Shown piece after piece: positions 52,629 to 60,157 of a stretch of DNA of 64,000 nt. The stretch is from an uncultured Alphaproteobacteria bacterium. Lineage in GTDB: Bacteria; Pseudomonadota; Alphaproteobacteria; RF32; CAG-239. How positions within the stretch are numbered: the first letter of the stretch is position 1; every line of letters starts with the position of its first letter. The stretch lies in NCBI GenBank assembly GCA_944393695.1, contig CALYAY010000001.1:185436-249435 (forward strand), in the 5' to 3' direction. The translations under genes were made by a program, and so were the position numbers. Under the pieces are notes generated by a model, which did not search any database, was not told where the DNA came from, and saw only the letters and a program-made list of their open reading frames with translations.

Positions 52629-54374
52629 ATGAAAAAATCCGGTTATTATTTAGGTGCAGCAGCAGGTCTGAGTTTTTTGCTGATGTCGGCGGCAAGCCAT
52701 GCCTTTTTGATTCCTACGGTTGATTTCAGCGCCATTGCCGAAGGCGTTAAATCTAATCTTGAATTGGTTAAGCAATCTAAAATTGTTGTGGAAGGAACAG
52801 CCCTTATCGGTGATGTAAACTCCACCATTGGAGATATCAAGTCAAATATTTCCGATCTTGGCGTTGAAGAAGCCAAACGTCTGGCGGAAAAGGTTCAAAA
52901 ACAAAAGGAAAATCTCGAAAAAGCCAAAGAAAAATACGATAAATACAAAGAAAAACTGGATGAAGCCAAAGAACAGGTAGAAAAAGCCAAAGAACTTAAA
53001 GAAAAAGCTCAGAGTAAAATCAGTGAAGCTCAGTCAAAAGTTTCATCCGCTGTCAGCAATGTTCAGGAAAAAGTCGACGACGCCAAGGAAAAGATTGACG
53101 ATGCCAAAGAAAAAGTCAACGATGTTAAATCAAAAGTTGATGAAGCCAGAAGCGTAGCTAGTGATGCCCAGGATATGATCGGTGAAGCCCAAGGTGCGGT
53201 CAGCGGAGCTCTCGGCAAAGTAAACAGCACACGCGAACAATTCGGGCTGGGCGGCTCTTCTTCAGAATCAGAAACGATGCCTTCTTATGTCTCGACGGAT
53301 TTCTCCGAACCGGAAACGTCCGTTCCCGCTCAAGCCCAACCGACTTCGGCCTCTGTTTCTGCGGCGCCAACGGATTTGGCCAGTGCTCAGGCTGAAATCG
53401 CCCGTCTTTCCGCCGAATTGGAACTTCTGAAGCAAAAGCAGGGACTTTCCTCCGAAACACAGATGCCGTCGGAAGAAACCCCGCCGGCAAATAATAATGA
53501 AACAGAAGATGAAACTTATGAAAGCCTGGATGAGGCTTTGGGTGAAATTGAGCGTTTGCAGGCCGAATTGGAAAAATATAAATCGGCTGAGCCGGCAGGA
53601 CAAAACATGCAGCCGGTTGTCGTATCCCCGTCTGTCTCATCCTCGGAAATTTCTACTCAAAGAGTACAAATGCCGGCCGGTACGGCAACTCCGGCTGAGA
53701 CAGATTCTTCCCTGTCCTCGCCCGAACAAACACTGACCCCGGCAAAAAACATCACCCCGTCAACCTCTTCCGGCGGCTTTCGCAAACGGCCGACGGTCAG
53801 CAAAGATATTCTGGGCAGTCTGGCACAGCCGGAAAACGATATTCACGTGGCCGTTTACAGCCATAACGAGGTTTTGTCCTTTGCCCAGCTTGACATGGAA
53901 AGTATTCCGACCGGAACCAATTCTGCCACCGATGAATTTATTATTTCGGATGAAATGGCTCAATATTGCAATATTAATATTAACGAAACGGACAGCGAAG
54001 CCATTAAAAACTGCCTGGAAGATATTATCCGTTATCGTAATGATCCGGATATGACAATTGCCGAAAAAGGTGAAATTCTTTACAAAAACCTGATGAAAGA
54101 AACCGCCACCGGCCTGACCACCGAAGCAATCATGCGTAAAAACGAAGCCACCAATTACAAAGATCAGGTCTTAAGCGAATTGAATAATGATTTGGGCAGT
54201 GCTTCTGATATACGTGATGATATTGCCGCTTTGGCACAGACCAACAATCAAATTCAGGTTCTGTTAAATGACCTTATTAAAATTCAGGCCAGTCGGATTA
54301 TGCAAAACGGTTTGGAATCTTTGCAGGATATAAAACCGACCGACATTGAATCCGGAGATTCTGAAGAGGAGTAA
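52629..54374 (+). CDS. Secreted acidic coiled-coil protein (581 aa) in the VirB5/VirB6 slot; possible VirB5/TrbJ-like N-terminus
   Basis: The start is at MKKSGYY (GGAGG ribosome-binding site). The signal peptide ends SHA|FLIPTVDFSAIAEGV. A ~130-aa run of 11-residue amphipathic repeats follows (DDAKEKIDDAK EKVNDVKSKVD...), then an S/T/P-rich linker and a helical C-terminal domain. There is no TM segment. Confidence 0.6.
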   Translation: MKKSGYYLGAAAGLSFLLMSAASHAFLIPTVDFSAIAEGVKSNLELVKQSKIVVEGTALIGDVNSTIGDIKSNISDLGVEEAKRLAEKVQKQKENLEKAKEKYDKYKEKLDEAKEQVEKAKELKEKAQSKISEAQSKVSSAVSNVQEKVDDAKEKIDDAKEKVNDVKSKVDEARSVASDAQDMIGEAQGAVSGALGKVNSTREQFGLGGSSSESETMPSYVSTDFSEPETSVPAQAQPTSASVSAAPTDLASAQAEIARLSAELELLKQKQGLSSETQMPSEETPPANNNETEDETYESLDEALGEIERLQAELEKYKSAEPAGQNMQPVVVSPSVSSSEISTQRVQMPAGTATPAETDSSLSSPEQTLTPAKNITPSTSSGGFRKRPTVSKDILGSLAQPENDIHVAVYSHNEVLSFAQLDMESIPTGTNSATDEFIISDEMAQYCNININETDSEAIKNCLEDIIRYRNDPDMTIAEKGEILYKNLMKETATGLTTEAIMRKNEATNYKDQVLSELNNDLGSASDIRDDIAALAQTNNQIQVLLNDLIKIQASRIMQNGLESLQDIKPTDIESGDSEEE

Positions 54375-54379
54375 GAGTC

Positions 54380-59300: not shown

Positions 59301-60157
59301 CGGGAAAATATGTCATTGATGCCCGGGGAGACAAGCCGGGATATGTTCTCTCCGTAAGCGATGAAAATTATTCGGAATGTCTTAATCTGAAAGCTGCCGC
59401 CGGCCGGTTTGGCATGAGCTTTGTCGAAAATGGTGAAGTTAAGGAAAACAACCTTGCCCAGGCCAAAATAACTTCGCAGGTTGCGGAATACGCCCCGAGC
59501 GAACTGGGAACTTTTCTTCAATATGACCGCAATAAACTTACTTTTCGTGATATTGATAATAAAGCTTTCACCCGTTTGAAAGAAATTCAGGAAAACGACA
59601 GTGATGAAGAATATAAAGAAGATGTTCCCGATAATCTTTATAAAAAAGCCGTTTTTGCCGAAAACCAGATTGGAAACTTTCTCAAATTTATGGAAATCGA
59701 AAGTGAATTGCGTCAGAATGTTGATGAAATGGCCGCCAAAATACAGGAAGCCCGGGAAGATTTGCGCACCCAGCTGATTGAAGCCGGATTTACCCCGGCA
59801 CAGGATTTTGATCTGGCCGATGAAACGCAATACAACGAAATCCGCGATTCTCTGGATTCTCTTAAAAACAGCAAAGTCTCTTCCGGTCTGGAACAAATCA
59901 GTGCTGTAAACAACCCGACGGATTCTTTTATTGACGCCCGGCTGGAAAAATTGCAAAATATTTTTACGGCCCTCACCAAGGACAAAAATGAGCTTATCAG
60001 CCTTTCAACCAGTACCGCGGCAGACAGCACGCTGGATGAACAGATAAAGAGCGAGGAAGTCAATCAGGAAGTTGCCGGCAAATACCAGGAAGAAGCCGAT
60101 AAAACTCTTGAAAATCAGCTCAATGGTTTTGATACGCCCTATTGTGCAGTTTATTAA
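56393..60157 (+). CDS. Large secreted acidic protein (1254 aa), no TM segments, in the slot where VirB6 is expected
   Basis: The start is ATG 56393 (AAGGAG ribosome-binding site, 2 nt after the upstream stop). The signal peptide ends ANA|FLPFIGPGTPTHD. The protein has extended coiled-coil tracts, is D/E/N-rich, and shows no hydrophobic run of ~20 aa after the leader. Confidence 0.6.
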   Translation: MKNLTHLFAGLIFSAVTLSSWPANAFLPFIGPGTPTHDAVTDASNAAHNAVTKLTSLNTGFILTAQENLKTLKAKYDEYKNDYTAVINPKQKSPLEGSRMFASSKLADPANPVEVQRAVYDLFLSYPSSDERTIRKCEAQTNQFYIDTVIEINTAVKQLEEEYNTNLKEKVNNISYDILSGENGAESSDDDNGSWKNEYNVYRTFDDLMQILEELTALKAQYVAARAMKNGLHTVVPEDSGTQPQASLLSSDNKLRLASASYENNQQMAFAALSADESETLKEETSSTGYQYRYNPSSNPYVSFSDAPQSDIASPFAESRDILEDLDKLTPVYDIATEALNVHNLIQSLPSKRELFVKYQQYVKLHDKSVELLRQSDNCVLQYLGRYYNEPEKIWYGNVFIGDQINDYDLREGLSGWAIESYEVAKAAKIDEDPDTEKFSELQIDKDVDGTDLNAVESQQESVKEQAEYTTGYVTSSQSEKEEKNNRELELLAWNIGAEAAEELAADQYSSSPQWGTPKKRFPIWNDQKNFYNQYIIGKYENIKDYLNRVNLQPSVIALAIELNKIMEAAPGIKLLVNKRLESLAGQYGEEPVVNLDSGYSAASGEKNNAVETLRNNKEKALEKLNRELAEYKNRLDEEQIKLDENNGRLNRINHPEMQNEGDAEETATAEEIQNEINNNRSSIEKIKQNISQVESKIAAIENAFIKKEQNIEQQYQDEIVKIDEEQKSWLPFSLELGDSHLQGITDILLRNKIKSYYSGLMEKSNGIINDARDYALEAVENAKNDILNIGDNIYVPSGNEQVVSRHTQLIDELKKLPFAQMKDIKSSMQIISGNYTKAAEIVTTIFQSALTENACRENNCTQPDSDYFIGASAQGRDFTAPKAAPEIYPAPLREVVHLDLTDFENIPKLTDGSVAKESMLDYGPRIPEIWKYILRSPAYVEKDINLGQMLSLGGEGENFMRGGYMPCRSGKYVIDARGDKPGYVLSVSDENYSECLNLKAAAGRFGMSFVENGEVKENNLAQAKITSQVAEYAPSELGTFLQYDRNKLTFRDIDNKAFTRLKEIQENDSDEEYKEDVPDNLYKKAVFAENQIGNFLKFMEIESELRQNVDEMAAKIQEAREDLRTQLIEAGFTPAQDFDLADETQYNEIRDSLDSLKNSKVSSGLEQISAVNNPTDSFIDARLEKLQNIFTALTKDKNELISLSTSTAADSTLDEQIKSEEVNQEVAGKYQEEADKTLENQLNGFDTPYCAVY

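Follow-up and report, generated by a model that had tools for sequence, protein, structure and literature searches.

A Four-Gene Block between virB4 and virB8

The window analysed here is a stretch of 64,000 nucleotides from the genome of an uncultured Alphaproteobacteria bacterium (assembly GCA_944393695.1, contig CALYAY010000001.1). It is chromosomal and carries dnaA, recF and rpsA. From position 48065 to its end, the plus strand holds an operon for a type IV secretion system (T4SS) of the VirB type, in the order three VirB2-like genes, a VirB3-like gene, virB4, four genes here called P1 to P4, virB8, a small lipoprotein gene, a second virB8 and virB9 (Table 1). The original prediction, made from the sequence alone, had placed four consecutive genes between virB4 and virB8. 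They were found at the same coordinates and with the same lengths, and identical frames had been chosen by gene callers on independent metagenome contigs. The three VirB2 copies that it had listed were likewise found; their cores are 29–56% identical to each other in local alignments.

Table 1. Features of the T4SS locus and its surroundings, with protein identity between the window and five relatives.
Feature	Position	Strand	Basis or remark	Identity (%)
T2SSE-family ATPase gene, 321 aa	31472–32437		~16 kb upstream of the T4SS	
Further pilin-like gene	35423–36013			
Type IVb pilus cluster	37366–47727	−	Divergent neighbour of the T4SS; range includes the 588-aa gene	
588-aa K/E-rich protein gene	45961–47727	−	Beside type IVb pilus genes, adjoining the T4SS	
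Three VirB2-like pilin genes, divergent	48065–48433, 48445–48882, 48925–49695	+	Pfam TrbC, weak or precomputed	
VirB3-like	49822–50112	+	Position and two membrane segments; no Pfam match	66–72
virB4, upstream edge of the block	50102–52534	+	Pfam CagE_TrbE_VirB and TIGR00929, E 1e-111	80–88
P1, 581 aa	52629–54374	+	Open reading frame and translation	17–41
P1 mature N-terminus FLIPTVD, VirB5-type [I/L/W]-P-T-x-D	52704–52724	+	Invariant in the family	
P1 motif AVYSHNEVLSFAQ, common to P4	53850–53888	+	Recurs in both families	
P1 acidic tail, SGDSEEE	54351–54374	+		
P2, 275 aa	54380–55207	+	Open reading frame and translation	16–42
P2 acidic tail, QKQEEE	55184–55207	+		
P3, 395 aa	55204–56391	+	Open reading frame and translation	21–42
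P3 VirB5-like region, about residues 251–368	55954–56307	+	Aligns with the C-terminal ~118 VirB5 positions	
P3 acidic tail, DSEGE	56374–56391	+		
P4, 1254 aa	56393–60157	+	Open reading frame and translation	26–47
P4 copy of the motif common to P1	57170–57208	+		
P4 C-terminus	60137–60157	+		
virB8 copy a, downstream edge of the block	60173–60925	+	Pfam VirB8, E 6e-16	54–82 (both copies)
VirB7-like lipoprotein, lipobox LLSAC, motif LKLSPCACLQL	61059–61247	+	Between the virB8 copies	79–82
virB8 copy b, 36% identical to copy a	61265–61990	+	Pfam VirB8, E 3e-23	54–82 (both copies)
virB9, CagX domain and weak SPOR-like C-terminus	62020–63612	+	Pfam scan	60–80
Giant genes after virB9, start	63609–64000	+	Continue beyond the window	

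The genes P1 to P4 abut or overlap (by 4 nt between P2 and P3), and each is preceded by a Shine-Dalgarno-like sequence, a tight arrangement that fits one operon. Judged by eye, all four products begin with the n/h/c pattern of a signal peptide and have small residues at −3 and −1; the predicted cleavage contexts are SHA/FL for P1, ARA/DK for P2, SLA/FL for P3 and ANA/FL for P4. The predicted isoelectric points lie between 4.5 and 5.3. Beyond residue 30, the maximal Kyte–Doolittle hydropathy over 19 residues was 0.67–1.14, compared with 2.3–2.9 in VirB3 and a real VirB6 (that of Paracaedimonas, 2.85). These features show that the four genes form one operon whose products, as originally described, are acidic, predicted to be exported and devoid of a membrane segment. 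Short acidic tails end P1, P2 and P3, and their orthologues end in the same way.

Conservation and Rates of Change

The genomic context was fetched for five P4 homologues spanning the whole identity range. In all five lineages, VirB3 and VirB4 were followed by three or four secreted proteins, the P4 homologue, VirB8, VirB7, VirB8 and VirB9. The lipoprotein in the VirB7 slot was 62 aa long in these lineages, and VirB9 was followed by a giant repeat protein and then a giant VirB10. VirB4 was 80–88% identical across the five lineages where present, one contig starting inside virB4. The four-gene block is an integral part of the T4SS, and the original assignment to the VirB5/VirB6 slot held in five divergent lineages. 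To the extent that their records are labelled, the P1 and P3 homologues came from the same kind of organism.

Against this constant gene order, the four proteins evolve two to four times faster than the proteins of the machine itself (Table 1). In a contig from the same species (L004), P1 to P4 were 99.9–100% identical to those of the window, and identity upstream was lower, with 82% for the third VirB2-like protein, 92% for VirB3 and 94% for VirB4 (window positions 48925–56391 compared). This step indicates a recombination breakpoint near the virB4/P1 junction.

On contigs identical to the window, virB9 is followed by genes for a 1458-aa repeat protein and a 1568-aa VirB10 and by virB11. When a VirB11 fragment was scanned against one genome per species, 229 stretches were found to encode a relative. 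The best 80 of these were kept; they were 86–96% identical, and their sources are uncultured Alphaproteobacteria living in the gut of humans, chickens, deer and rabbits, with record titles such as ‘Alphaproteobacteria bacterium’, ‘Azospirillum sp.’, ‘CAG:495’ and ‘Ca. Scatocola’. In one relative (L031), the 10 kb past virB11 encode a DEAD helicase, an isochorismatase, PtsP, RodZ, IspG, HisS and PrfA; with such housekeeping genes directly beyond it, the T4SS locus is taken to end at virB11. The literature searched yielded no publication that deals with a T4SS of this gut clade.

P3 and the VirB5 Proteins of Plasmid Systems

The nearest annotated systems were found by a VirB4 search against plasmids, with 39% identity for Microvirga, 34% for Sphingosinicella and Erythrobacter and 30% for Paracaedimonas. 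The proteins encoded after VirB4 in these systems start with QVPVLD, QIPTID (Sphingosinicella) and GIPVID (Erythrobacter), and that of Erythrobacter is a member of the Pfam family VirB5 (PF07996; E 7e-7 over the full length). A tblastn search with the Erythrobacter VirB5 reached only Sphingosinicella, so that a deep alignment could not be built and the reference alignment of plasmid VirB5s comprised four sequences. By sequence, the Erythrobacter VirB5 matched nothing in the PDB; the four-sequence profile retrieved only the HR1 heptads of coronavirus spike proteins, which were rejected as a composition artefact.

Aligned by hhalign with the family of P3 (56 homologues), the four-sequence alignment gave a probability of 86.4% and an E value of 4.7e-6 over 118 columns; with a shallower alignment, the probability was 79%. 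The matched part of VirB5 starts in its second half and reaches the C-terminal helix. P3 itself consists of a signal peptide, the mature start FLKID, and a central coiled coil that parts this N-terminal motif from the VirB5-like C-terminal half. Thus, P3 looks like a VirB5 whose N-terminal helix and C-terminal half have been separated by the insertion of a coiled coil, and the comparison with the four-sequence alignment suggests a relation to VirB5 at profile level. Together with the features of P1 and P4 described below, the block would contain one probable (P3) and two possible (P1, P4) VirB5-like genes. Neither P3 nor P4 found a match in tblastn searches against plasmids.

A Positional Motif at the Mature N-Termini

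The conserved feature at the mature N-termini of P1, P3 and P4 is the motif [I/L]-P-[T/K]-x-D, located within the first 13 residues. In the P1 family it reads [I/L/W]-P-T-[VILF]-D, where P, T and D do not vary among 34 aligned sequences drawn from more than 164 homologues. In the P4 family it reads P-T-[LIV]-D-x-x-T-D; the exact mature start GIPTID or GIPTLD occurs in 2 of the 25 homologue clusters and FSIPTID in a third. Proteins of the P3 family start with (G)-I-P-K-I-D or I-K-F-D. P2, with its conserved mature start DKE..QK, does not carry the motif. The dipeptide FL, originally noted as the common start of three mature proteins, is specific to this species, since orthologues begin with L, Q, FA, G, K, T or V; what the three families share is the motif.

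The same motif opens the VirB5 domain. Fragments comprising the first 80 residues of the VirB5s of Erythrobacter and Sphingosinicella matched PF07996 from profile position 1 (26.9 and 22.3 bits), which places GIPVID and QIPTID at the beginning of the domain and bears out the IPV-x-D start of VirB5 that the original prediction had named. Read off the sequences, the spacing D-x35-[I/L]-G is common to the plasmid VirB5s, to a second plasmid protein, X (see below), to P1 (D32 and G68) and to P3. As a check on chance, the pattern P[TVK][ILVFTH]D was counted in the ~51,000 residues of the window's long reading frames; it occurred five times, and two of these occurrences are the mature N-termini of P1 and P4.

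A hidden Markov model (HMM) of the P1 N-terminus, applied to VirB5, X, P3 and P4, scored 7.3 bits at best, compared with 9.1 bits for the best shuffled sequence. Thus, the shared N-terminus is a short positional motif rather than demonstrated homology. N-terminal fragments of P1, P3 and P4 missed PF07996 in the scan in which the Erythrobacter and Sphingosinicella fragments matched. When the profile of the P1 N-terminus was searched exhaustively against 1.84 billion representatives, it returned 65 matches, nearly all of them P1-like, and in nearly all the region lay at residues ~27–83, right after the signal peptide. Among the 26 weaker matches, a scan found none with Pfam VirB5 and two with weak DUF4141. 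As far as the sequences tell, the likeness of the three N-termini is a positional motif of ~5 residues with no detectable module; the paralogous N-terminal module proposed earlier is thereby reduced to this motif.

Architecture of P1, P2 and P4

P1 is composed of a signal peptide (residues 1–25), a conserved N-terminal helix region, a heptad coiled coil (~83–200), a disordered linker, a conserved C-terminal helical domain with two conserved cysteines (~425–570) and the acidic tail. The N-terminal ~55 residues and the C-terminal domain are the most conserved parts, and P29, T30, D32, Q49 and G68 are invariant. The ~130-aa repeat had been described as an array of 11-residue amphipathic units. 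Its BLOSUM autocorrelation peaked at lags of 7, 14, 21 and 28, and its hydrophobic moment was 1.15 at a period of 3.5, compared with 0.03 at 3.67; it is a heptad coiled coil with a period of 7 and not 11. The AlphaFold2 (AF2) model of P1 was all-helical, with a predicted local distance difference test score (pLDDT) of 75–84 in the C-terminal domain. This domain, aligned by hhalign with the same part of VirB5 and of X, gave non-significant probabilities of 1.6–5.9%. ‘Mini’ constructs of P1 lacking the coiled coil had one non-significant Pfam stretch (E 2.4), misplaced in the VirB5 profile, and the P1 profile had no match among PDB sequences. The relation of P1 to VirB5 is suggestive only.

P4 starts, after its signal peptide, with FLPFIGPGTPTHD (GIPTID..TD in orthologues), followed by a disordered linker, a large helical body and a beta-rich domain (about residues 965–1050); its C-terminal end PYCA[AVS]Y is invariant. 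The 25 homologue clusters are 26–47% identical and none is named. Modelled by AF2 from residues 55–1254 with 25 sequences, P4 reached a mean pLDDT of 77.2 and a predicted template modelling score of 0.64. Most of the last ~930 residues, which form long helical hairpins and the beta-rich domain, had a pLDDT around 90, and the N-terminal 260 residues were poorly modelled. Foldseek found no structural match with E < 0.018 for this model in PDB or BFVD. The P4 family HMM found nothing significant in P1, P2, P3, X or VirB5, and hhalign of P4 with VirB5 gave 0.1%.

P1 and P4 have a further linear motif in common, A-x-[YVF]-S-x-x-E-[VT]-L-x-F-A-Q, which in either protein lies after a disordered linker and before a conserved domain and which is found again in both families. 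A looser five-residue pattern that covers its core was present in 55 of 120 P1 and 22 of 25 P4 family sequences, compared with 3 of 56 P3 sequences. This motif speaks for either a partner or an origin that P1 and P4 have in common. P2 is helical, between its conserved mature start and acidic tail; it had no family match in Pfam, NCBIfam or PHROGs, and hhalign with VirB5 gave a non-significant 2.4%. The matches that P1 to P4 did obtain in these three collections (SMC, tape-measure, HmpF and similar) were discarded as coiled-coil noise.

Lack of a Recognisable VirB6 in the Window and in Plasmid Relatives

The inspected sequence comprised 64 kb of the source genome and, for the plasmids, as much as 16 kb of flank around virB4. 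The T4SS part of the window contains no polytopic open reading frame; the sole one in the window encodes T2SSF of the neighbouring type IVb pilus, whose cluster lies on the opposite strand. From virB2 to virB11, neither a Pfam TrbL match nor a polytopic frame was found in the window or the related loci, in keeping with the earlier remark that VirB6 was missing from the window. VirD4 and a relaxase were also absent from the locus through virB11, in the window and on the relatives' contigs. The proposed check for a VirB6 membrane core hidden inside P1 to P4 was negative both by hydropathy (no 4–6 hydrophobic helices) and by profile (no match to VirB6/TrbL, PF04610), and Foldseek searches with the P1 and P4 models retrieved neither TrwI nor DotA. 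Three further candidates were rejected: the 588-aa K/E-rich protein, which might have been a hidden VirB6 or VirD4, is hydrophobic in only one segment, at its N-terminus; the downstream 1458-aa protein has one membrane segment and is otherwise a repeat protein; and polytopic-looking frames in high-GC plasmid loci lie antisense to annotated genes.

The closest VirB4 proteins (34–39%) belong to plasmid T4SSs of Erythrobacter aureus (NZ_CP031358), Sphingosinicella (NZ_CP035502) and Microvirga (pMVF16-3), which resemble the window locus in their order VirB2, VirB3, VirB4, VirB5, X, VirB7 (with the same PCAC motif), VirB8, VirB9, VirB10 and VirB11 and in the lack of a canonical VirB6 in the cluster. 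They differ in having VirD4 and a MobA/L relaxase (upstream of the cluster in Erythrobacter and Sphingosinicella), a single VirB2, a single VirB8 and two slot proteins of ~250 and 420–490 aa, as opposed to four much larger ones; the locus in the window, moreover, lies on the chromosome, and its VirB10 is surrounded by giant repeat proteins. On the Erythrobacter and Sphingosinicella plasmids, no polytopic protein is encoded within 12-kb flanks on either side of virB4. In Microvirga, the slot holds X and a 228-aa protein with three membrane segments; in Paracaedimonas, it holds an ordinary Pfam TrbL protein and no X.

X is a secreted protein of 460–493 aa encoded after VirB5 in Erythrobacter and Sphingosinicella. 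With an hhalign probability of 95% to VirB5 (E 2e-8), its profile makes it a clear VirB5 paralogue. Ahead of its own V-x-D motif lies a Cys/Pro-rich extension similar to the N-terminus of the P4 homologue that diverges most (FGPACPPIPFCPMPD). The annotated starts of X look too short (L025, 15228–16709; L106, about 15290–16668): extended to an upstream ATG, X gains a signal peptide and the conserved mature start QLG-x-CP-x3-PPPCIV-x-D. The presence of this paralogue in the plasmid slot suggests that duplication and enlargement of VirB5 there are ancestral to the clade. Thus, duplication in the slot and the lack of a recognisable VirB6 would predate the gut lineage, which would later have expanded the slot to four much larger proteins.

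Genes Surrounding the Block

The motif L-K-x-[ST]-P-C-A-C of the VirB7-like lipoprotein also occurs in small lipoproteins of the T4SS loci of Microvirga, Erythrobacter and Sphingosinicella; the gene of the latter is without annotation (L106, about 16900–17100). VirB9 is 530 aa long and has a Gly-rich linker and a weak SPOR-like, i.e., peptidoglycan-binding, C-terminal domain; the SPOR match was seen again in the VirB9 orthologues of loci L016 and L022. The two giant genes that directly follow virB9 (L011, 11590–15966 and 15968–20674) encode the 1458-aa protein, whose membrane segment is N-terminal, and the 1568-aa VirB10, whose TrbI domain is C-terminal. Repeats of ~20 residues that follow the pattern D-x-x-G-N-V-I-G-x-V (Pfam Bflower_2; DUF3659 faint) fill both, and in relatives the pair measures 1141–1145 and 1463–1503 aa.

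At the other end of the operon, the third VirB2-like protein has an N-terminal extension of ~170 aa with an S/N/Q-rich low-complexity tract. In relatives, this slot is occupied by proteins of 797 and 973 aa (L016, 593–2986; L022, 45–2966), in which the VirB2-like hydrophobic hairpin sits mid-protein. The neighbouring type IVb pilus cluster encodes a bundlin/PilS-like pilin, T2SSF, T2SSE, PilO, a secretin and TcpQ; a TcpQ gene and a protein of the 588-aa type adjoin the T4SS in L001 and L020/L021 as well. The T2SSE-family gene for a 321-aa ATPase belongs neither to the T4SS nor to the type IVb pilus cluster.

Discussion

The most favoured reading, to which a probability of about one half is given, is that P1 to P4 are Sec-exported, soluble, mostly helical accessory subunits of the T4SS, forming a diversified and enlarged VirB5-family or VirB5-derived set that serves as an adhesion module at the stalk and tip. 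VirB5 makes up the stalk top and the pilus tip, and a part in target contact is ascribed to it (PMC12624023, PMC12857230). Once P1, P3 and P4 have reached the periplasm, their N-terminal [I/L]-P-x-x-D motif and the long helix would put them in the VirB5 position, i.e., in the periplasmic stalk and later at the tip of a pilus made of the three VirB2 paralogues. Their large, fast-diverging bodies would then be displayed at the tip and contact the target surface of host or other cells. Since the locus has neither VirD4 nor a relaxase, the system may act mainly in adhesion and contact or in the export of periplasmic cargo rather than in conjugation. With respect to VirB5, TrbJ, TraC and TrwJ (PF07996), the likeness lies in Sec export, helical structure, the lack of a membrane segment, the gene position after virB4, the mature [I/V]-P-x-x-D start with its long helix and the profile alignment of the C-terminal half of P3. 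Judged heuristically, the Sec signal and solubility of VirB5 are found in all four proteins; the VirB5-type start is seen in P1 and, at the family level, in P3 and P4, and not in P2.

Several observations weigh against this reading. Pfam VirB5 and the T4SS models of NCBIfam were matched neither by P1 to P4 nor by versions without the coiled coil, the hhalign comparisons of VirB5 with P1, P2 and P4 were non-significant, and the HMM of the P1 N-terminus did not rise above shuffled sequences. The poor P1 model (mean pLDDT 52.7) matched only generic long helical bundles in Foldseek searches of the PDB, none with E < 0.018, and the confident P4 model matched no VirB5 or VirB6 chain there. The PDB does hold VirB5 structures of TraC (1R8I) and R388 TrwJ (8RT9) (PMC12624023); neither model found VirB5, TraC or CagL. 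Of the comparison with VirB5 suggested at the outset, the profile part gave a match for P3, and the structural part gave none for the low-confidence P1 model or for the P4 model, with its poorly modelled N-terminus. The mature lengths, 372–1229 aa, go far beyond the ~220 aa of VirB5, with inserted coiled coils, disordered linkers and extra domains, and there are three or four different proteins where other systems have one. Moreover, coiled coils tolerate substitution, and low identity alone is no proof of surface exposure. The stalk/tip location, the adhesive role and the VirB5 descent of P1 and P4 are inferred from sequence features.

An alternative that appears unlikely, though not far-fetched, is that P1 to P4 would serve the VirD4-less machine as Sec-dependent substrates, be it effectors, toxin subunits or surface-coat proteins, and not as structural parts. 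They would be pushed from the periplasm across the outer membrane, much as pertussis toxin is by Ptl, with which the locus shares signal-peptide proteins and the lack of VirD4. The encoding of four signal-peptide proteins inside the T4SS operon, their effector-typical fast evolution and the acidic C-terminal tails of P1 to P3 would suit such a role, and since Sec-exported pertussis toxin has been proposed to dock in the VirB5 position (PMC12857230), even a VirB5-like motif on cargo would fit. However, gene order and number are kept in all lineages, whereas effector repertoires are usually more variable; P3 is probably homologous to the structural subunit VirB5; the conjugative plasmid relatives, which do have VirD4, hold a VirB5 paralogue in the same slot; and neither the family scans nor the P4 fold search revealed an enzymatic or toxin domain. 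At the other extreme, the block might be unrelated cargo inserted into the operon or a set of mis-called frames, as the absence of known family matches and an AT skew that differs from the neighbouring genes could suggest. This possibility is negligible: the block stands at the same place in every relative examined, which rejects an insertion, its GC content is like that of the flanks, the genes are coupled and have Shine-Dalgarno sites, the families of P4, P3 and P1, in which domains are conserved, number 25, 56 and more than 164 homologues, and the skew stems from a K/E/N/Q-rich composition.

Somewhat less probable than the substrate role is the replacement of VirB6 by P4, or by X on the plasmids, as a soluble VirB5-derived oligomer forming the stalk base and the platform for pilin assembly. 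VirB6 is a pentameric platform for VirB5 docking and pilus growth (PMC12857230, PMC12624023); that of R388 is mostly periplasmic, with two helices anchoring it in the membrane (PMC12857230), a point in favour of this reading. No polytopic frame or TrbL match lies between virB2 and virB11, the Erythrobacter and Sphingosinicella clusters look complete and yet have no VirB6 within their flanks, and X and VirB6 exclude each other there, as the TrbL protein of Paracaedimonas illustrates. On the other hand, VirB6 has been described as conserved in all T4SSs (PMC12857230), and in the genomes behind the inspected 64 kb and plasmid flanks it could be encoded elsewhere, as with the scattered genes of Rickettsiales. 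The three-segment protein of Microvirga may be a minimal VirB6, the P4 model is unlike the TrwI and DotA chains in the PDB, and the recruitment of pilin by VirB6 takes place inside the membrane, which is hard to imagine for a soluble protein. The broader idea that the whole clade, i.e., the chromosomal T4SSs of the gut lineage and some Sphingomonadales plasmid T4SSs, works without a polytopic VirB6 and builds its stalk base or platform from soluble VirB5-derived paralogues (X; P1, P3 and P4), expanded in the gut lineage into giant, fast-diversifying surface proteins, is doubtful, about on a par with the substrate role. Neither the substrate role nor the replacement of VirB6 is mutually exclusive with an enlarged VirB5-derived set at the stalk and tip.

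Among known systems, the Bartonella Trw T4SS is alike in having no VirD4 and several VirB2 and VirB5 genes, and it is read as a variable host-adhesion surface structure. Its copies stem from recent tandem duplication of TrwL and TrwJ, both of ordinary size, along with which TrwI (VirB6) and TrwH were amplified. In contrast, the paralogues of the window are old, as seen from the divergent VirB2 cores, hugely enlarged and without VirB6, and VirB7 is single. The Trw-like amplification put forward in the original prediction therefore applies to the presence of several VirB2 and VirB5-like genes without VirD4, and not to recent tandem copying, the paralogues being barely alignable. With three VirB2 proteins, an adjacent type IVb pilus and no VirD4, the system resembles an adhesion or contact T4SS of the Trw kind in its presumed working; it is not a member of the Bartonella Trw family. 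The rvh system of Rickettsiales shares several large proteins after virB4, a duplicated VirB8 and an alphaproteobacterial host, but its large proteins are VirB6 family members with five or more hydrophobic helices, and VirB5 is absent, whereas those of the window have no membrane helices and show VirB5-like features. In the Helicobacter Cag system, the secreted helical proteins CagL, CagI and CagH stand in for VirB5 and mediate host contact, and CagW is the VirB6 analogue. No likeness of sequence or fold to CagL, CagI or CagH was seen, though no test was aimed at it.

P4, some 1250 aa in length, has a structure that is predicted with confidence and is without a structural relative in PDB or BFVD. 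The complete-looking loci, among them plasmid clusters with a coupling protein and a relaxase, that lack VirB6 and have additional VirB5-like proteins instead would, if this is true, mean either a very divergent VirB6 or an alternative way of stalk building. The fast change of P1 to P4 makes them candidate molecules for contact with hosts or competitors in a common, unstudied gut lineage. The T4SS is conserved in gut Alphaproteobacteria of humans, chickens, deer and rabbits and may be relevant to host interaction.

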